Below, piece by piece: positions 2,759 through 21,060 of a DNA stretch of 64,000 bases. A model generated the notes under the pieces. The model made no database searches. It was not told the DNA's origin and saw only the letters and a program-made list of their open reading frames with translations. Numbering within the stretch: position 1 is the stretch's first letter; each line of letters opens with the position of its first letter. This DNA is from a virus (lineage: Duplodnaviria > Caudoviricetes): positions 1 to 64,000 of IMG/VR virus record IMGVR_UViG_3300021387_000164. One strand, written 5' to 3'. Made by a program: the position numbers and the translations under genes.

Positions 2759-3169
2759 TTATGCCGCTTCTTGATATCTTAGGGTATTCTGGTCCCAATC
2801 GAGACGCTTTCGGTTTGCCACACCGATAAAACAGTGGGTAACCTTTGGTGCCATGTTTACTGTCTTTGCATGAACTGGCTTCTGCGTTGTTTTTGTACCA
2901 ACACTCGGCGTCTTAACAATATTACGACCTTTGACCGGGCTAAAGCGCTGCTTCATCTCAGCCCTAGTAAATGTGGTTTTTGTACGGTAAACTTTAACCT
3001 TTACGTACTTCTGCTTTTCAGCATCCCACTTACGAACGATACGATACGGACAATGATGGTTCTCTATACGAGACTTTTTGCGGTTGAGCTCACCATCAAG
3101 AAATATTGTCTTACGAGCAGTTTTAATATCTAATGTCTTTGCCTGCTCACTGTTGTTATTGTTAGCCAT
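2759..3169 (-). CDS. hypothetical basic protein
   Basis: 136-aa ORF, TATCAAAATG start context, ends ...QEAA. Confidence 0.8.
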   Translation of the reverse strand: MANNNNSEQAKTLDIKTARKTIFLDGELNRKKSRIENHHCPYRIVRKWDAEKQKYVKVKVYRTKTTFTRAEMKQRFSPVKGRNIVKTPSVGTKTTQKPVHAKTVNMAPKVTHCFIGVANRKRLDWDQNTLRYQEAA

Positions 3170-3305
3170 TTTGATAACGGATTTAATTGTTTAAACTAGC
3201 GTTTAAGGCCATTTTAAAGCGATTTAAGCCATTACAGGGCGTTAAATGGTATATTAATCGCCAAAGGGAAACAAACGGTCTAAACGGCTTGTATAGCCCT
3301 ATTTG

Positions 3306-3364
3306 TGACTAGTTGCGGGAACGATCCGCTCATATCCTGTCACGATATGCACCATCTTCTAGTC
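3306..3364 (-). ncRNA. short tRNA-like element
   Basis: GACUAG/CUAGUC-A stem, CAUAUC/GAUAUG hairpin, GCGG-AUCGUUC-CCGC T-like arm. Confidence 0.35.
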
Positions 3365-3375
3365 TATAACATCTT

Positions 3376-3918
3376 TTATGCGATCAAATCGTCTTTGATC
3401 ATATCTGCAACAGTAGTAACATCAATGTCGGTGTTTGTATTAAACTCCTCCATATTATTGTTATACTTTGTAGCCTTCAGATTAAGGTCCTTAATCAGCT
3501 GAGCAATCTTAGCCGATGTAAACACCTCGCTCTTACCCATCTTAGCTGCGCCGCCCTTCTTAGACTTAGTAGCTGGATCTATAGTAGGAATCATCTTGAG
3601 CTGTGCAATGGCCTCCTTAATCTCGGTTGCCATGAAGATGTTATAATTATTTGTTTTCTCGAAAGCGTTCTTGTCAAATGTTGTTGCGCCGGTATTCAGA
3701 GCTGCAAGCATACCCTTAATATAAACCAGCTTATTTGACATCTGCATAATCTCATTATACAGAGCCTTTAGGTCATACTTACGGTAACCGTTTTTGACCT
3801 CCTTCGTGTTGAGCAAATTAGTATTACGGATGTTAATCCAGTAATCCTTCTTCTTCTTACAAATCTCCTCACGAATGTTAATGATGTTCTTTGCCTTAAA
3901 CTTGATTGATTTTGCCAT
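3376..3918 (-). CDS. hypothetical helical protein
   Basis: 180-aa ORF with A-rich start context. Confidence 0.85.
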   Translation of the reverse strand: MAKSIKFKAKNIINIREEICKKKKDYWINIRNTNLLNTKEVKNGYRKYDLKALYNEIMQMSNKLVYIKGMLAALNTGATTFDKNAFEKTNNYNIFMATEIKEAIAQLKMIPTIDPATKSKKGGAAKMGKSEVFTSAKIAQLIKDLNLKATKYNNNMEEFNTNTDIDVTTVADMIKDDLIA

Positions 3919-4181
3919 ATTTGATAAAAATTTAAGTTCATATTAGCTCGAATCATCATCTACCTATCGTAATTTATGGCGGTAGCGAACCCCCATAAAT
4001 CAAAAGAATCCTAGGGAGAGTTAGTCCCTCGAGACCAACTCCCCCAAGTCCCCTCAAGGACTATATAGGATAAGATTTTTTATTTGTATTTCTTTAGTGC
4101 TTGTTCAGAACAATATACGTAAATACAATATTCGCAATGTGGTTAGTGACTCCGCTAAGAGTATAACCTAATCCCTCGAGA

Positions 4182-4775
4182 TTATTCTGCTACTACTGTC
4201 TTTACGTCTACTATTCCTACATCACACCGCAGAAATGCCTTTCCAGTAGCGTCTGGAAGCAGCACAGTTTTTCGATTTCGACCTTCGATGTTTACGTTAA
4301 TCGTAACAGGCTGTTCAACTGGCGCAACAGTACGGACTACGCTTGGGCCTGACTTCCCCGGAGATCCCTCGAGATCTGCTCCGTCCTTATTGTTGCACAC
4401 ATGGTCATAACACTCCTGTAAACGCTTAACAACCCAATCGTAGTCTTTCTCGAGCTGTGCACGTTCCATGATTTCTATTCCGAGGCCTTTCTTCAAAGCC
4501 TCCTTGTTGTTGCCTGTAGAGAGTTCCAACAATCCTTCCCAGACTGCAGATGCAAACTGATGGAATGTTAGTGGGAACTGACATTTGACTAAACGGTTCC
4601 ACCACCACACGTCGGTTTTACCCAACGTAATGATACCAGAATCGCTTATTCGAATAGCCTTGTAACTGTCACCCTCCTCGCCTGCAGACATTACGTGCTT
4701 ACGGATGACGTCGTTGAGCAGCAAACGCTGCATATTCAACTTAGAATCATCCGAGAGGAGAACTTTCTTGTCCAT
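4182..4775 (-). CDS. hypothetical protein
   Basis: 197-aa ORF coupled to the upstream gene by GAA TAG TT ATG. Confidence 0.85.
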   Translation of the reverse strand: MDKKVLLSDDSKLNMQRLLLNDVIRKHVMSAGEEGDSYKAIRISDSGIITLGKTDVWWWNRLVKCQFPLTFHQFASAVWEGLLELSTGNNKEALKKGLGIEIMERAQLEKDYDWVVKRLQECYDHVCNNKDGADLEGSPGKSGPSVVRTVAPVEQPVTINVNIEGRNRKTVLLPDATGKAFLRCDVGIVDVKTVVAE

Positions 4776-4777
4776 AA

Positions 4778-5449
4778 CTATTCAGCACCTGCCTGGGTAG
4801 CCTTTACCTCGACCATAGCGCCGACCTCACCCTTCAGGATCTCACGGAAGTCAACGGTCTCTACCTTTGTCTCAGCCAGCTCCTTGGCGAACTGCTGTGC
4901 CTTCTTGTTGTTGTCGTTGATGGCACCAATCAGGTTCTGCTCGATCTTGCCCAGGATATCCTTCAGCGCGCGTACAGCTGCCAACTCGCCCTTATTGGCC
5001 TCGTTGATAACAGCACATACTGCAGTGGGGTTCAGGAAGAAGTTCTCGCCCTCACCCTTCAGAGCATCCTCGATGGCCTCGGGTGTACCCTTAACCAGCT
5101 TGAATACGTCCTTGCTGAGTGGGAAGAACTGATCGAATGTACCAGTCTCGGGATCCAGGTTGATAGCAATACCTACCTCATCGGTAACAGGGCGCTTGTA
5201 ATAGCTGGCGTTACGGATGTCTACATCCTTCAACATGTACTTACTGATCTTGCGGTTAGGCATGAGCATCTTAGAAAGTCCAGTGCGAACCTTCTCGCAA
5301 TCGTTGCTCCAGCCTTCGTCGCCACCCTGCCAGGTGTTACGAGACTCTACCTTGTGGTAAGCCTGACCAATAAGTGAACCTACCATGCTACCGATACCGC
5401 GTGACTGAGGAATAGCGGTCTGAATGTTAATGTCAATTGTTTTATTCAT
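4778..5449 (-). CDS. hypothetical protein (TAG stop)
   Basis: 223-aa ORF with strong AAG/GAG/AAC codon bias, suggesting high expression. Confidence 0.85.
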   Translation of the reverse strand: MNKTIDINIQTAIPQSRGIGSMVGSLIGQAYHKVESRNTWQGGDEGWSNDCEKVRTGLSKMLMPNRKISKYMLKDVDIRNASYYKRPVTDEVGIAINLDPETGTFDQFFPLSKDVFKLVKGTPEAIEDALKGEGENFFLNPTAVCAVINEANKGELAAVRALKDILGKIEQNLIGAINDNNKKAQQFAKELAETKVETVDFREILKGEVGAMVEVKATQAGAE

Positions 5450-7810
5450 TTTTCTTATCCTTTTTGATATCGTTATTGATTAACTAACGATAAGAATTAA
5501 TATTTGCGCATTCTTAGGTTGCGCGTTACCTTTGAGTTAAAAAGTGGCATTCTGGCTCAAAGGCTCTATGAATGTTGTTTATTGATTTTTATTACGTATC
5601 TTTATGCGTGCTTATGAGAGCAATTTTTTAATTATTAATAGAGTATTTCCTAACTGTTATATCTTTATATTCCTCAAAGTGAAACTCATTCAACATAACG
5701 GGGATCCAACGGTAGGATCATCCATGCCCATCATTAGAAGATTCTTCTATCTTTAATAAAAATACAAAATCCGATACTGTGTAACCAAACATAAAATCTT
5801 ATAAACTTATGTAAATATTCAATTTTCATGAACTGGATACTTTCATCTGTTCGTTGGCGAAATTTTGCTTACGCAACTAACGTTCGTAGAACTTTTTACT
5901 AAATCCAGCTTAGATTCCAAAAATGTTGCGTAATATATTCTTCAGCGTATTTTCCCTATAGCTGTCCGAATCTACTACTTTCCGATGCTGTACAGTCTTG
6001 CGATACTGTTTAGGCGCATCTACCACTGTTCTGTGCTTTTTACCGGTCAGAACAATCAATACCCGGGTGCTGTTAACGCAAGCTTACGAATCTGTTCAGT
6101 AGCTCCATAACTACGTCTACGTAGTATCATACGTTTCTTTATCGAACGGTCCTCTTAAGGTGTCAGTGCCTCGACCCTACGGCGCGTTGTTTTCTTCTAT
6201 TGGATGCGCTTACTCCACCCTCATTTGTTTATAGTGCACGAATACTGGAGGAATTTCACCTCATACATCGCTTCTTGTCACCCACTAAAGTTCCACTTCA
6301 CCGAATCATATGTGTGCCGAAACGTATTTCTACGACGATCTAGCGTCACTACATAATCTCTTTACCCCTCCGAGACAGGGAGGTGGTTCCACTTCGCGAT
6401 AGCTGCCCATCGATTAAATGTATATGACTTCATGGTCCGAACGCACCACTTAGATTTGCTGTCTAAGCTTCTGGTCTATCATCTTGTCAATTTGCTTCTC
6501 AGGAACGGTTGGCACTCGATTTCTCTATCATACGTCTAAAATGGTCATGTTTCTTCAATACAACAGAAGGACACTTTTCTAAGGCGTTGAACATAACGTA
6601 ATAGATTTCATAGAGGGACATCAATTTTTGTTAAACATGTTAATTTCATCTGGCTACTTTCACATAGTTTTGCTTGATGGTCAAGACATACCGCACACAG
6701 GTTTACTACTCCTGCTGATATAGTACATCAGTGCCCTACTATGTTATCCTTTACAGACGTTGGCGATCTCCTTCTACACTGGCGTGTGTAGACCTCGAAT
6801 CGACCTAAATAAGCTAACGGCTCTGCCTGCTTTTGACTATAAGGTTGTCATCCTTCGACTCCAGCATTTCCTCTGGTACATCTCCAATCTATGCTACTAA
6901 CACACCGCTTACCATGGTTTTCGCACCTTTAGAATAGTCTTTCTCCCCGGACTTCACTCGGGTAGCATTCAAGCCTCTAGGCCCTACTTCGCATTCAGTT
7001 CCTGCATCGAACTGGTGATCATTTTTCATTTAGCACGAATCAATTCCACGTGTCTTATACCGCTTAAACGATCAAAGCCTAGCGGTCATCTTCAACACAT
7101 TTTCCTCAGTACCCCGTCCCCGGTGACCCATTGGGACCGTAGCCTCAAAGGTAGTCATCTAGTAATCGAAACTAGAAGGATTTCTTCAAGGACCGTAGTT
7201 ACGGTACGGCGCAGACAGTCAAACCTTCTGCTAGGCACATATGCTCAGATATTTTTCATCCCCTTACACACCCGGTTGGACCTCCGAAGAGCCCGAGTGA
7301 AGGACTAGACTACAGCTTAATTGTGAATTGATACATCATATAAGAGTTTTGGCCTCTACTTATATGGGCAACTCGTGTATCGTAATTTTACCACTATGTA
7401 TCGCTTGTGATAAATCTATCAATACGGTTCAGTTTAGAGCTACTCTAGGATTACTCCTATTTCGGTTTACTCTACGTCTTTCAGTATATTCCTGACTTTT
7501 TACATGCTTTCACATCGGTTAGACGTGTTTTAAGTCCTGGGCGGCAAAGTACCAACCTGGTGTATACTATGGGGTCTGATACAGACGCTCTCCCCACTTA
7601 CTATAACCTTTTCAGTATAGAGTATATTATACAGTTATAGCATTTCATCCTACCTTTTGGGTTTCTCACCTTTTGAGAAGGCTAACATATTCTCGGATCA
7701 AGTATATACTCTCGTTTCGCACCCGGCTAATGAGACCGTTGACGTGGTGCTGACCAGTTCCCCCACGGGGCAGGGGGACATATGAATCCTCATACATCCC
7801 CCAACTGCGG
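5450..7810 (-). ncRNA. candidate very large structured non-coding RNA (about 2.1-2.3 kb)
   Basis: No credible ORF. Many helices, including an 11-bp long-range pair (6952-6962 / 7292-7302) and a terminal pairing (5706-5718 / 7647-7660). Strand inferred from flanking genes and purine-rich loops. Confidence 0.6.
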
Positions 7811-7816
7811 AGCTTA

Positions 7817-8263
7817 CTAACGTTTATAGACTTCCTTACCGTCGACAATAAGGATAACGGACACTTTAGGAGGTCCGATAGTGTCTGTGGTGTGCTCCTC
7901 ACGATCCACATCTACTGTTATTGGGACAGGCGTATCAGAGAGAATAGCTGGAATGCTATCCCCGTTTCGTTTCGCCTGAGTGCGTGGCAATGTAGACTTT
8001 GCCTTTCGCTTAGCTTTTACGTATATGGGTTTTTCTTTCCATACCGTGTCGTGGATTACCTCTTTGGGTTCATTGTACTTATTCTCCAGATCTAATTGAA
8101 GATCAAGTGGCAGCTTTACTCCATTAGGAGTCCAGCTTAACACTGGAGCTGCACTGATTGTGTTATATGAATCCGCTAATGCCGTTGAAGGCTGCAGATT
8201 TGCTAAAAAGCCACCGAGAACGGTCATACACACAATACACAGGAGGGTATGTAACTTTTTCAT
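7817..8263 (-). CDS. secreted or membrane-anchored hypothetical protein
   Basis: MKK followed by a hydrophobic N-terminal segment, 148 aa. Confidence 0.8.
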   Translation of the reverse strand: MKKLHTLLCIVCMTVLGGFLANLQPSTALADSYNTISAAPVLSWTPNGVKLPLDLQLDLENKYNEPKEVIHDTVWKEKPIYVKAKRKAKSTLPRTQAKRNGDSIPAILSDTPVPITVDVDREEHTTDTIGPPKVSVILIVDGKEVYKR

Positions 8264-9812: not shown

Positions 9813-10199
9813 TCAAGATGTGTCAATAACGGTGTTTTCGAGTGGTTGATCGCGAGTTTTAATCGCGATCTTACTCTCAGAAAGAGCACTGTCTTTTAAT
9901 ACAGTAGAATCCTGACCCACGGGGTTTGAAGTTGCCTTCTTGGTATCCGCTGTTGAGTCACCTCCCAAAAGATACGTAAAAGCGTCTGGTGCCAACGCGG
10001 CCGCCTGTGTGGGATTCACCTGCTTAACAGTAATCTCTTCCTGTTTTGGAGACGACTTCTTAGAAGTCATCGTCCACATTGCAAAGCCGAGCAGGAATGG
10101 AATCAAAAGCTTCCAGAACAACTTGTTGCTCTCGTTATAACGAGCAATGCCAACAAGAGCTGCGATGACCATGCAAAATGGTAACAGAGTTAAGATCAT
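9813..10199 (-). CDS. membrane protein, possible anti-sigma factor
   Basis: Two N-terminal hydrophobic segments; immediately downstream of the ECF sigma gene. Confidence 0.7.
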   Translation of the reverse strand: MILTLLPFCMVIAALVGIARYNESNKLFWKLLIPFLLGFAMWTMTSKKSSPKQEEITVKQVNPTQAAALAPDAFTYLLGGDSTADTKKATSNPVGQDSTVLKDSALSESKIAIKTRDQPLENTVIDTS

Positions 10200-10204
10200 A
10201 AATG

Positions 10205-10768
10205 TTAAATTTTTAATTGTTTTTGAATACGCTTTCGTGTCCTTGACAACGTTGACTTTATAGTTCCAGTTGGGATATTTAGCGCGTCGCCGATTTCTTC
10301 AACGGTCATATCTTTATCGTAAAATAACCTGAAAATCTTACGATTGACTTCAGGTAGTTTATCAAATTCGGCTAACAGATCGTCATAAGTAAGATGATTG
10401 ACTATTTCATCTTCTAGTGACCTTGATTTTTCTTCTGGCAGTCTACCATCAGATTCACCAAGAGTTAATTGCCGTTCTCGCATCTTACGAAGATAATCTA
10501 CCGCTGTTCGGTTAGTTATCGTTCTTAGCCAACCACCAAAAGAGTCGTAGGCCTTAAACATCGAGAGTTTATTGTACACTTTTAGAAACACGATGTTCGC
10601 GATGTCTTTCGCTTCGTCCATGTCTCCAATATATCCAAAGAGGATATTCTCTACAAAGCCTTTATACCTGTAGAATAGTGTATTAAAAGCACGCATATCG
10701 CCTGCTTGCGCTTTTTTGATTATCCCAACCTCTTCTGAGGTGATTCTTGGATTCTTGGACATAATCAA
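10205..10768 (-). CDS. ECF (group 4) RNA polymerase sigma factor
   Basis: Region 2 (AQAGDMRAFNTLF...EAKDIANIVFLKVY...FGGWLRTITNRTAVDYLRK) and region 4 HTH (MTVEEIGDALNIPTGTIKSTLSRTRKRI). Confidence 0.93.
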   Translation of the reverse strand: MIMSKNPRITSEEVGIIKKAQAGDMRAFNTLFYRYKGFVENILFGYIGDMDEAKDIANIVFLKVYNKLSMFKAYDSFGGWLRTITNRTAVDYLRKMRERQLTLGESDGRLPEEKSRSLEDEIVNHLTYDDLLAEFDKLPEVNRKIFRLFYDKDMTVEEIGDALNIPTGTIKSTLSRTRKRIQKQLKI

Positions 10769-15319: not shown

Positions 15320-16260
15320 AATTGTGCACAGCCCATCATCATACCGTTCTAGTCATCTGTAGCGCCGGGTCATCGCCCATTAAGACGCTTCTTGTACTAC
15401 CCCATTTCGTAGACAGAACAATATGAATACCATATAGTTTGCAGTTCACCCGTTTTAAGTCTTCTTGGAACTGCGTAAAGGTTACAGACTATGTATATTG
15501 ATTTTAAGAAACATGACCGATAAAAAATGCTTGCGCCTTGTTTCACAACAAGAATCTTTTTCTAACTATGACGAATCTAAGTATTATAATAACACAAATG
15601 AAAACCACACAATTATTTACGCAAGCACCATGTCTCACGACATGTAAATCACATTATTAATTGTTTAAAATAATAGATGTAGTAGTTCCCACAGTTGTCT
15701 TCGCGACTACGTCTCGTATATGCAGCGTATAAATACCTGGGATACGTCTCGCACTGTGGGAGAAGGTTTTTCGCACCTACAACTCATGCCGGATTACTTG
15801 TAGACCGCTATCTGAGGCACAGCGGTGAGTATATACTCTCCAGTGTCAGCTTCTTTTTAAGTCTCCTCTGACCACGACTCGATAGATAGGATGGTTCGGA
15901 CGCTCCATCTACTCCTGCTATCTACCTCATTAAAATTGTACCGACTAGCATCCGGTTCTAGAATCCGTCACGGTACTGTAGGGTCAACTAGCACCCCCTT
16001 TGTTCGATTGATGTTTTTAAGGTGAATATTCGACAAATCACATTTCGCCTCCATCTCTCATACGTTGTTCCTATCGAGATGTGACTACGCGCAACGTATA
16101 CGCTTGCACCCTCTCTGCATTCTCCAACTAGGCCGACTCCCCGCAGGGATTTTGTTATTAGTTGGTTGTCTGGACTTGAGGTTTCCAGATCTCAGCTGCA
16201 TTCTATGCATATAAAAGGTGAATGCTACGATTCTCACGAACAGTAGCATTCTAAAAAAGC
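15320..16260 (-). ncRNA. ORF-poor structured region, candidate ncRNA(s)
   Basis: Multiple stems (for example CCCACAGT/ACTGTGGG 15688-15760) and motifs shared with 5450-7810. Confidence 0.4.
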
Positions 16261-16272
16261 AATAGCAAAATA

Positions 16273-16500
16273 TTACACCTTTTTCAATATTATGTTGTCG
16301 ATGGCGCATTGCAGACGTGGAAATCCGTTACGTCCGTCAACGACATTTGGACACAATACAATATCATTTAACGCACATCCGAAGCATCCGTTGGTGCGTT
16401 TCTTGGCACGATACACAACATCGTTAATTGTGCATAATTGCCCAGGCTTAAGTTTTATCTGCCTGTGTCTTCTAGATACTATATTTTTACTCATTTGCAA
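16273..16500 (-). CDS. small Cys-rich protein, paralog family member 1
   Basis: KPGQLCTINDVVYRAKK...CFGC...C...C. Confidence 0.75.
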   Translation of the reverse strand: MQMSKNIVSRRHRQIKLKPGQLCTINDVVYRAKKRTNGCFGCALNDIVLCPNVVDGRNGFPRLQCAIDNIILKKV

Positions 16501-20920: not shown

Positions 20921-20948
20921 TTTTATCTAAGCGCTCTCACTTGCGCTG

Positions 20949-21003
20949 AACTGTTTCGTCGTAATTTTCAACGACTCATCAGGAGCCTAAAGGCCCGACA
21001 GTT
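20949..21003 (-). ncRNA. hammerhead ribozyme, type III
   Basis: AACUGUC^GGGCC-UUUA-GGCUC-CUGAUGA-GUCGU(UGAAAAUU)ACGAC-GAAA-CAGUU. Confidence 0.92.
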
Positions 21004-21060
21004 TATAAATACAGCACACCTATTCTCACGAACCAGTGTGTGCCAGAAATTGAAAATAAT

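Follow-up and report, generated by a model that had tools for sequence, protein, structure and literature searches.

A conserved non-coding locus of the Suoliviridae that probably encodes a multi-domain structured RNA of about 2.0-2.4 kb

We found that an ORF-free interval of 2367 nt on the minus strand of a gut crAss-like phage (positions 5450-7816 of the 64,000-nucleotide stretch analysed here, hereafter the window) very probably encodes a structured non-coding RNA that has several domains, measures about 2.0-2.4 kb and is kept at one syntenic position in the Suoliviridae. An earlier note on this DNA had proposed an undescribed structured RNA much larger than GOLLD and ROOL, and this proposal was supported by synteny, by selection without codon periodicity and by covariation that survived controls.

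Coding capacity, constraint and distribution of the locus

The interval lies between two minus-strand genes (Table 1), both of which are complete ORFs with their own start and stop. The longest ORF beginning with ATG, GTG or TTG inside it comprised 97 aa. No long frame was opened in it by reading TAG as Q, by code 4 or by reading TAA as Q, and no single or double stop reassignment (one stop being kept) opened a frame in the interval or in 30 homologues, in agreement with the earlier note, which had seen no credible ORF and, in the parts it checked, frames that stayed closed even when TAG was read through. Substitutions among near relatives (three clusters, 12-15 relatives each) showed strong 3-base periodicity in the flanking genes (p 6e-3 to 1e-21), whereas none was detected in the gap (p 0.63-0.91). 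When substitution counts were divided by codon phase, the gap varied at 0.09-0.13 per site as compared with about 0.2-0.5 at third codon positions, synonymous sites changing 2-4 times faster than the gap, and nucleotide conservation was higher in the gap than in the neighbouring genes. The interval was thereby shown to be non-coding and under purifying selection.

Eighty complete related loci (31 sequence clusters) had this gap between the same pair of genes; its length was 2001-2367 nt in all 80, and the order of the domains was invariant. A pattern derived from the most conserved block (7639-7707) identified at least 114 IMG/VR loci carrying the motif, and BLAST returned 16 GenBank records with the locus; the seven whose taxonomy was examined were Suoliviridae in every case (five Oafivirinae, two Loutivirinae). 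The locus is kept at one syntenic position in the Suoliviridae, in the subfamilies Oafivirinae and Loutivirinae. Seven MAG-binned contigs also carried it; their bin names were mutually inconsistent, and were therefore read as mis-binning and rejected as a clue to the host. Pattern matches in Aquimarina litoralis and in lake-sediment MAGs were rejected as chance, both being without a profile match and the latter lying inside an ORF. A comparison with a second non-coding region of the window (15.3-16.3 kb), aimed at a promoter or motif in common, gave only a 13-nt match, which was not above chance.

The downstream protein had no Pfam or PHROG family, and its AlphaFold model (pLDDT 80.5) gave no PDB fold match. 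The N-terminus of the upstream protein was read as an apparent signal peptide. The earlier note had also suggested a possible RNP with the neighbouring basic proteins. The immediate neighbours of the locus were acidic or neutral, or had an apparent signal peptide, and basic proteins were found at a distance of 1.5-4 kb; comparison of the neighbours with Pfam, PHROG and PDB folds identified no conserved RNA-binding partner gene beside the RNA. Small genes, tRNAs and hammerhead ribozymes surround the locus on the same strand.

Compensatory pairing and domain organisation

The RNAalifold consensus of 12 sequences contained 363 pairs (-419.8 kcal/mol), as compared with only 69 pairs and -23.7 kcal/mol for a coding control from the same genomes. 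In 19 independent sequences left out of the prediction, 67.8% of the cells were canonical, against 37-45% with the partners slid, and 907 pairs had changed on both sides, against 349-538. The excess over the slid controls was observed in all six sub-regions, and 29 of the 68 helices, spread over 5453-7771, passed strict criteria. In the region 7005-7297, pairing reached 86.2%, against 72.3% after shuffling (0/500) and 37-48% with slid partners, and the compensatory cells numbered 214 against 76 (0/500). The covariation that the earlier note had suggested looking for in syntenic loci was therefore present in sequences independent of the fold, and dozens of helices were shown to hold their pairing through compensatory substitutions along essentially the whole length of the interval.

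The sense fold was more stable than the antisense one (-419.8 versus -374.7 kcal/mol), and the predicted pairs included 668 G-U as against 365 A-C in the independent sequences. The G-U pairs together with gene orientation point to an RNA encoded on the minus strand, which is the strand of all neighbouring genes; the earlier note had named no strand. Folding energies of the single sequence, another check that the earlier note had proposed, were unexceptional (minus strand, z = -2.43 at 6917-7716 and +0.73 at 6117-6916; plus strand, z = -0.53); being weak and inconsistent, they were not counted as evidence.

The conserved long-range helices were 6239-6245/6512-6518, with compensatory changes, 6609-6620/7257-7268 and 5856-5863/7647-7654. 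Long-range pairs were 68% canonical in the independent sequences, against 35-48% when slid, and showed no excess of compensatory cells over the slid controls (29 versus 24-50). The longest-range helices lie in near-invariant sequence, so that they are supported by conserved complementarity more than by covariation. Since the alignments were sequence-based and the fold came from RNAalifold, individual helices in Table 1 and below may be wrong.

Table 1. Features of the locus and its flanking genes; domains run 5' to 3' on the minus strand
Feature	Position	Strand	Basis or remarks
Whole structured-RNA locus	5450-7816	-	No frame; synteny in 80 loci; constraint without codon periodicity
5' leader hairpins	7719-7771	-	Directly after upstream gene; helices m46-57 and m79-93 among those that pass
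Most conserved block	7639-7707	-	ACUUGAUCCGAGAAUAUGUUAGCC-hairpin-GGUGAGAAACCCAAAAGGUAGGAUGAAAUG
Two covarying helices	7570-7642	-	7599-7606/7635-7642 and 7570-7574/7592-7596
Central domain, about 660 nt	6609-7268	-	Closing helix 6609-6620/7257-7268
Core domain, about 280 nt	6239-6518	-	Closing helix 6239-6245/6512-6518
3' domain	5596-5978	-	Covarying hairpins 5779-5792, 5700-5729, 5656-5699 and 5605-5622
Terminal stem-loop	5453-5495	-	Outer helix UUCUUAUC/GAUAAGAA; 90% canonical, 5 covarying pairs
Downstream syntenic gene	4778-5449	-	223 aa, pI 5.5; always directly after RNA
Upstream syntenic gene	7817-8263	-	148 aa, hydrophobic N-terminus

The covarying stem of the 5' leader bore the conserved loop UCUCAUUAG (about 7727-7735) and, in the anchored alignment, read GCACC..CGG/CCG..GGUGC here and GUACAUA../..UAUGUAC in other members. 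The hairpin of the most conserved block (7668-7672/7678-7682) covaried as CCU/AGG, CCC/GGG, CAG/CUG and CCG/CGG, and seven pairs of the 8-bp helix 7599-7606/7635-7642 occurred as at least two Watson-Crick types. The central domain carried the hairpins 7271-7283 (loop YUCCAAA), 7211-7231 and 7192-7210 (loop CGUAA), a tRNA-T-arm-like hairpin at 7160-7176 with GUUCGAUUC in most relatives, and a 14-bp helix (7012-7027/7062-7077) bearing a lineage-specific inserted hairpin. The longest invariant strings were those of the core domain (GAGUGCCAACCG, GGCAGC, a CUGUCUC loop, AAGUGGGUGAYAA and GUAUUCGUGCACUAUAAA), where hairpins were found at 6448-6468 (loop CAGCAAA) and, T-loop-like, at 6247-6260; pairs of its closing helix were GC in 24 sequences and CG in 6, GC in 28 and AU in 3, and UA in 30 and CG in 1.

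The GGUAGGAU motif near the 5' end had two candidate long-range partners in the 3' domain, at 5856-5863 and at about 5711-5718 (the 5706-5718 arm of the earlier note). Of the 31 representatives, 17 had a complement of 8 nt, with G-U pairs tolerated, at a distance of 190-295 nt from the 3' end. The near-terminal pairing of 7647-7660 with about 5706-5718, described in the earlier note, was indeed conserved (70% versus 33-50%), with its register shifted by one base. The terminal stem-loop contained an inner covarying hairpin of 4 bp and a conserved AUAUCAAAAAGGA string; its outer helix appeared in relatives as AUAUAUC/GAUAUAU, AUGUUC/GAACAU, CUUAUGUC/GACAUAAG and UUCGUAUC/GAUACGAA, and stops 1-3 nt short of the downstream AUG, so that the start region is base-paired.

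Several of the other elements picked out from the single sequence also corresponded to conserved helices with compensatory changes, namely the hairpins near 6449, 6774, 7192 and 7570 and the two T-loop-like hairpins at 6250-6260 and 6916-6927. Others were weakly conserved or not conserved: the hairpins near 6996 and 7337 were poorly conserved, no conserved helix was predicted near 6110, the palindrome AGTATATACT sits in a stretch that is variable among relatives, and a stem of the proposed pseudoknot (5869-5877/5925-5933), perfect here, was not conserved (41% canonical). The perfect 11-bp pair 6952-6962/7292-7302 does exist as an exact inverted repeat; both arms lie in insertions nearly private to this phage (only 9 cells could be compared across the 30 other representatives), and simple arithmetic gives a chance expectation of about 0.7 such pairs in 2.4 kb.

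The RNA alignment contained near-invariant strings and conserved hairpin loops. The RNA resembles a large 'ornate' RNA in its conserved single-stranded strings, its T-loop-like hairpins and its lineage-specific insertions of hairpins, and three features of the descriptive class of large 'ornate' ncRNAs were found, namely a non-coding sequence, many covarying helices, and conserved loop and junction nucleotides.

Known large RNAs and expression data

Rfam cmscan gave no match in the interval by gathering score, nor with E relaxed to 10, and none in five homologous loci at E up to 1; a match to a known intron, which the earlier note had held against its own proposal, was likewise not obtained. 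The covariance models of GOLLD (RF01998) and ROOL (RF03087) were unmatched in the window and in the five homologues, those of SSU and LSU rRNA in the window at E up to 10, and that of OLE (RF01071) in the window, where the neighbours had no Pfam or PHROG family. No Rfam group II intron match was found in the gap or its homologues, and the flanking ORFs were uninterrupted. A search of the literature on crAss-like phages and non-coding or structured RNA found no description of such an RNA.

Like GOLLD and ROOL, the RNA is phage-borne and non-coding, has many conserved helices and conserved loop and junction nucleotides, and has tRNA genes nearby on the same strand. In contrast to those RNAs of Firmicutes prophages, which measure roughly 0.6-0.8 kb, it is about 2.0-2.4 kb long and belongs to virulent phages of Bacteroidota. 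OLE, a bacterial RNA of about 600 nt that forms an RNP with OapA/B/C and bS21, is similarly a large, highly conserved multi-stem RNA and serves as a model for a scaffold role; the RNA described here differs from it in being phage-borne. To our knowledge, structured RNAs of comparable size occur in bacteria only as rRNAs and ORF-less group II introns, with which the RNA shares the 1.5-3 kb size class or a multi-domain architecture, T-loop-like and GNRA-like modules and inserts resembling expansion segments; unlike group II introns, the locus has no flanking exons. GOLLD and ROOL function, so far as known, as RNA-only assemblies (PMC12286853).

The crAss-like phage phi14:2 has been described with two abundant, persistent early lncRNAs from a long intergenic region near a genome end, which exceeded most mRNAs in abundance and were already there at the earliest time point (10.1101/2020.03.07.982082). 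Its ORF-free interval (2905-4601 in NC_021806) resembles the present locus in belonging to the same phage order and in lying among small genes near the genome end. Nevertheless, phi14:2 belongs to a different family (Steigviridae) and was described as having two RNAs, and comparison of its region with the RNA family gave a best nhmmer profile E of about 4 and nothing significant with blastn.

Part of the window was contained in 17 RNA-library runs from 13 studies, mostly as small shares; the cover examined in four of them consisted of contigs that carry no strand, ends or ranking and whose uncovered parts are uninformative. In the two best runs, both from one sample, the gap and the flanking genes had similar, low cover, for which DNA carry-over could account; only one bovine run covered the gap and almost nothing else, and had been selected using the gap itself. 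Expression of the locus is at most weakly shown. A consensus scan for promoters and terminators in the locus gave counts no higher than in shuffles and none that was convincing.

Alternative readings and significance

How the locus works can be proposed only tentatively. A single RNA of about 2.1-2.4 kb, acting through its three-dimensional fold in host take-over (whether as ribozyme, RNP core or self-assembling RNA particle), is a possibility that we put forward with some reserve. The interval might instead be a string of several independent smaller structured RNAs, cut apart after transcription, which we regard as rather unlikely. The majority of the strongly covarying helices form local hairpins or enclose domains of 280-660 nt, the long-range pairs lack a compensatory excess, the tRNAs and hammerhead ribozymes on the same strand imply heavy RNA processing, and phi14:2 is described with two lncRNAs, not one. 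However, the gap length is tightly held with an invariant order of domains, the long-range pairs stay canonical well above the slid controls, a complement of the invariant 5' GGUAGGAU motif recurs at a constant distance from the 3' end among the 17 representatives given above, and no internal repeats, iterons, repeated promoters or signs of an origin from duplicated modules were found in the interval.

It is improbable that the locus is a giant cis-acting leader, that is, a 5' UTR controlling translation or stability of the downstream operon (the 223-aa gene and its followers). Such a role would agree with a structure that extends right up to the downstream AUG, with a covarying helix that in every lineage pairs the 8 nt directly before the start codon with upstream sequence, and with the lack of a terminator between RNA and gene. 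Nevertheless, about 45 nt would suffice for an operator, no leader known to us from bacteria or phages comes anywhere near the remaining 2.2 kb of conserved multi-domain structure, and conservation of the RNA exceeds that of the gene supposedly under its control.

A DNA-level element that folds as single-stranded DNA (a replication origin, or a packaging or injection signal) seems very improbable. The genome has direct terminal repeats, the locus is situated 5-8 kb from its end and expression is at most weakly shown, which would suit such an element; against it, the cumulative GC skew passes straight through the interval without a turning point, repeats and iterons are missing, the G-U asymmetry points to the transcribed strand, the locus occurs in RNA-library contigs of several studies, and its loops of the T-loop-like and GNRA-like kinds, like its inserted expansion hairpins, are characteristic of RNA. 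Finally, although stop-codon recoding and introns do occur in this group of crAss-like phages (PMC7886860), a protein gene that has decayed, is laden with introns or is oddly decoded can be dismissed almost entirely, because no frame appeared under any reassignment in 31 lineages, the gap lacked the 3-base periodicity of its complete flanking genes, its constraint was far above that expected of a pseudogene, and neither group I nor group II introns were detected by Rfam in six homologues; a decayed coding sequence, which the earlier note had also named as an objection, was ruled out by the same lack of periodicity and by the constraint.

If the locus does encode a single structured RNA, this would be transcribed together with the block of small genes, tRNAs and hammerhead ribozymes around it on the same strand, and may persist as one stable molecule. 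It might act in trans through its fold during infection, conceivably by holding host or phage factors as a scaffold or sponge, or by forming an RNA-only assembly, and its last 45 nt may also hide the downstream gene's start region.

Large structured RNAs of unknown function are rare and have repeatedly been sources of new biochemistry, and recent cryo-EM structures of GOLLD, ROOL and OLE reportedly revealed unexpected RNA-only assemblies. The crAss-like RNA is roughly three times the size of these, and the constraint on its sequence is stronger than that on the adjoining protein genes; if the proposal is true it would be, as far as we know, the largest structured non-ribosomal RNA of any phage or bacterium, at about three times GOLLD. 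Current phage annotation misses such RNA genes, the loci being left blank or filled with spurious 'hypothetical proteins' on the opposite strand. The Suoliviridae are a major family of gut crAss-like phages, among the commonest in people and livestock, and most of their early genes are unannotated; we know of no cultured member or host. The RNA offers a concrete target for structure work and for understanding how crAss-like phages take over Bacteroidota cells.

Distribution and coding potential

The source of the window, whose first 64 kb it represents, is a virus record of 99,055 bp carrying direct terminal repeats, and its nearest GenBank relatives were uncultured crAss-like phages of the Suoliviridae, Oafivirinae (cr272_1, cr130_1, cr124_1, cr7_1 and a Bohxovirus). 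GenBank relatives carried an unannotated gap of ~2.1 kb between the same flanking genes, with a sigma-factor gene lying three genes upstream. BLAST between homologous gaps showed similarity in collinear islands, and a pattern made from the best island retrieved at least 114 IMG/VR loci. The whole interval was available in 80 loci, with the gene strand free of ORFs in all and a length of 2001-2367 nt (median 2129); these loci formed 31 clusters (below ~88% identity), each giving one representative, with 45-74% identity to the window. The most distant group matched cr53_1 (Blohavirus) and cr52_1 (Buchavirus) of the Loutivirinae, and therefore the element is present in at least two Suoliviridae subfamilies. 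Seven contigs that had been assigned to various bacterial MAGs, the longest of ~100 kb, were further members. Gastranaerophilaceae, Lachnospiraceae, Sphaerochaeta, Intestinibacter, Bacteroidaceae and Segatella copri were the MAG names of the gap-bearing contigs L127-L136; these crAss-like phage genomes were apparently binned wrongly, and the names are no evidence on the host. Two sediment contigs and one Aquimarina scaffold matched the pattern, but were not members.

The longest ORF between the two flanking genes was of 97 aa. Reading through TAG, TGA or TAA opened no long frame in the gap, and under codes keeping a single stop no frame approached its capacity of ~700 codons, in the window or in 30 homologues. 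Codon periodicity was evaluated by chi-square in three clusters of 12-15 close relatives: substitutions were concentrated at the third codon position in the flanking genes (p 6e-3 to 1e-21), whereas the gap showed no codon-position bias (p 0.63, 0.80 and 0.91), and indels were present in the gap and mostly absent from the flanking genes. Because the gap had no coding signal, the opposite-strand 'hypothetical proteins' annotated in GenBank within the homologous gaps of cr7_1 (gp52, L123 4310-4792) and of the Bohxovirus (ECCNAKDA_00150, L122 2797-3303) are probably spurious calls. Variable sites per position were 0.09-0.13 in the gap versus ~0.2-0.5 at third codon positions in the downstream gene, indicating that most changes were removed by selection, and across the 31 representatives nucleotide conservation was higher in the gap than in the neighbouring coding sequence.

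Fold of the interval

A first scan for structure, covering all column pairs of an L-INS-i alignment, revealed hairpins with wholly exchanged stems and kept loops. The fold predicted with RNAalifold from the 12 closest representatives had 363 pairs in 80 helices (-419.8 kcal/mol), and was evaluated in the 19 representatives left out of the prediction, using as control the 3' partners slid by 1-5 columns. Canonical cells amounted to 67.8% versus 37-45% in the slid controls, and both sides had changed with pairing kept in 907 cells versus 349-538, the excess being found in all six sub-regions, from end to end of the gap. Within 7005-7297, 86.2% were paired versus 72.3% after shuffling (reached by 0 of 500) and 37-48% after sliding, with 214 compensatory cells versus 76 in shuffles (0/500). 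A strict filter (a canonical share of 75% or higher across the 31 representatives, two pairs or more showing at least two Watson-Crick types, and an occupancy of 60% or above) was passed by 29 of the 68 helices of at least 3 bp, spanning 5453-7771. When the same procedure was applied, as a coding control, to 1.2 kb of the downstream genes in these 31 genomes, only 69 pairs (-23.7 kcal/mol) and a small excess over sliding were obtained. The single-sequence folding energy of the gap was not informative. The structured RNA proposed here by the earlier note is supported by constraint without codon signal, by a fold kept in 19 independent representatives and by the weakness of the coding control.

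The perfect 11-bp inverted repeat also claimed there is exact and the sole one of at least 11 nt in the gap; by our own arithmetic ~0.7 would be expected by chance, and both arms lie within insertions almost private to the window phage.

The structure starts no more than some tens of bases from the upstream stop codon, where a covarying hairpin with the conserved loop UCUCAUUAG precedes a near-invariant ACUUGAUCCGAGAAUAUGUUAGCC block, and reaches the downstream start codon. The 3' terminal 8-bp helix, UUCUUAUC paired with GAUAAGAA 1-3 nt ahead of the AUG, covaried in every lineage (AUAUAUC/GAUAUAU, AUGUUC/GAACAU, CUUAUGUC/GACAUAAG and UUCGUAUC/GAUACGAA) and enclosed a small hairpin, which also covaried, along with a conserved AUAUCAAAAAGGA string. 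As this helix adjoins the AUG, the start region of the 223-aa gene would be sequestered, and the arrangement suggests that the RNA is co-transcribed with this gene and that its last 45 nt exert some cis control on it. No promoter or terminator consensus stood out at the gap.

Features of the gap and its surroundings (window positions)
Feature	Position	Strand	Details
Gap	5450-7816	-	2367 nt
Downstream gene	4778-5449	-	223 aa
Upstream gene	7817-8263	-	148 aa
Best island	7639-7707		
Hairpin, loop YUCCAAA	7271-7283		stems ACGC/GCGU, UAGU/GCUA, UGGA/UCCA, AUGAG/CUCAU
Hairpin, loop CAGCAAA	6448-6468		stem exchanged, loop kept
Hairpin, loop CGUAA	7192-7210		stem exchanged, loop kept
Hairpin resembling tRNA T-arm in most relatives	7160-7176		GUUCGAUUC
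14-bp helix	7012-7027/7062-7077		extra hairpin inserted in the window phage and two others
Helix closing core domain	6239-6245/6512-6518		exchanges GC to CG, GC to AU, UA to CG
Conserved helix closing central domain	6609-6620/7257-7268		domain of ~660 nt
Invariant 5' motif	7647-7654		GGUAGGAU
Candidate partner 1 of 5' motif	5856-5863		AUUUUGCC
Candidate partner 2 of 5' motif	~5711-5718		AUCCUACC
Sigma-factor gene and following gene	9813-10768	-	sigma factor: PHROG 1740, E 4e-26
Second ORF-poor stretch	15320-16300	-	~0.9 kb
Type III hammerhead ribozyme	20948-21004	-	Rfam, 52.6 bits, E 9e-9, above gathering score; strand of early-gene block

Strand, extent and expression of the RNA

Three lines favoured the minus strand, that of every neighbouring gene, as the RNA strand: the alignment folded at -419.8 kcal/mol in sense versus -374.7 as reverse complement; the predicted pairs in independent sequences included 668 G-U versus 365 A-C, composition alone giving ~1.35:1; and G-U was used within single stems, such as UAGU/GCUA.

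Besides the conserved helices that close the core and central domains, the invariant 5' motif had two candidate partners, each at a constant position in the 3' domain, and a G-U-tolerant 8-mer complement was present 190-295 nt from the 3' end in 17 of the 31 representatives (~3 expected by chance). Long-range pairs were canonical in 68% versus 35-48% after sliding; their compensatory cells were not in excess over the slid controls. These strands hardly vary, hence their support is conserved complementarity and not covariation. The near-terminal pairing of the earlier note survives on that footing as the second of the two candidates, and the one-molecule reading is therefore held as likely only; that the locus makes a single RNA of ~2.2 kb we regard as evenly poised.

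Part of the window stretch was found in 17 RNA-library runs of 13 studies, the majority being metatranscriptomes from rumen or gut. The gap and flanking genes had similar low depth in the two best runs (one sample), so that DNA carry-over is a possible source. Two contigs from RNA libraries joined the upstream gene to the 5' block, and a bovine run with a ~90% identical relative, chosen by the gap, covered 5403-7805 and almost nothing else. Together these runs give no more than a weak hint of expression.

Gene neighbourhood and known RNAs

The minus strand carried every gene in the first 22 kb of the window, among them four tRNAs and the hammerhead ribozyme; the ribozyme together with the tRNAs suggests a long transcript cut to pieces. 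The window's own tRNAs are 4-7.5 kb upstream of the gap; those of relatives share the strand of the RNA and follow the gap downstream by 1-2 kb (6128-6201, 6241-6324 and 8057-8127 in the relatives' loci L009, L073 and L005). GOLLD and ROOL likewise are associated with tRNAs. The sigma-factor gene is followed by that of a 128-aa protein, which has hydrophobic segments and may be the anti-sigma partner; the pair preceded the RNA by three genes in every relative looked at. Neighbouring proteins had no Pfam or PHROG family, and the 223-aa protein had a confident predicted fold without match among solved folds; the immediate neighbours were not basic.

Neither the window's gap nor five diverse homologues of it had a hit in Rfam 15, and the gap is therefore not GOLLD, ROOL, OLE, a group I/II intron or an rRNA as modelled there. 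Full-text literature searches found no description of this crAss-like RNA. The nearest experimental precedent is phage phi14:2, in which a long intergenic region near the genome end yields two early, abundant and persistent lncRNAs (10.1101/2020.03.07.982082); this region (NC_021806, 2905-4601) is ORF-free like the gap, but without similarity to its RNA family. The second ORF-poor stretch, which the earlier note had linked to the gap, showed no significant similarity to it and shares only the 13-nt GAGAGTATATACT; it had one weak match among the relatives' loci compared, most of which end short of that position.

Confidence in any particular function for the RNA is low. We consider it highly probable that the gap is a structured RNA gene; the locus is under strong constraint, its RNA is structured in several domains, and the family to which it belongs, hitherto undescribed, is conserved across the Suoliviridae.
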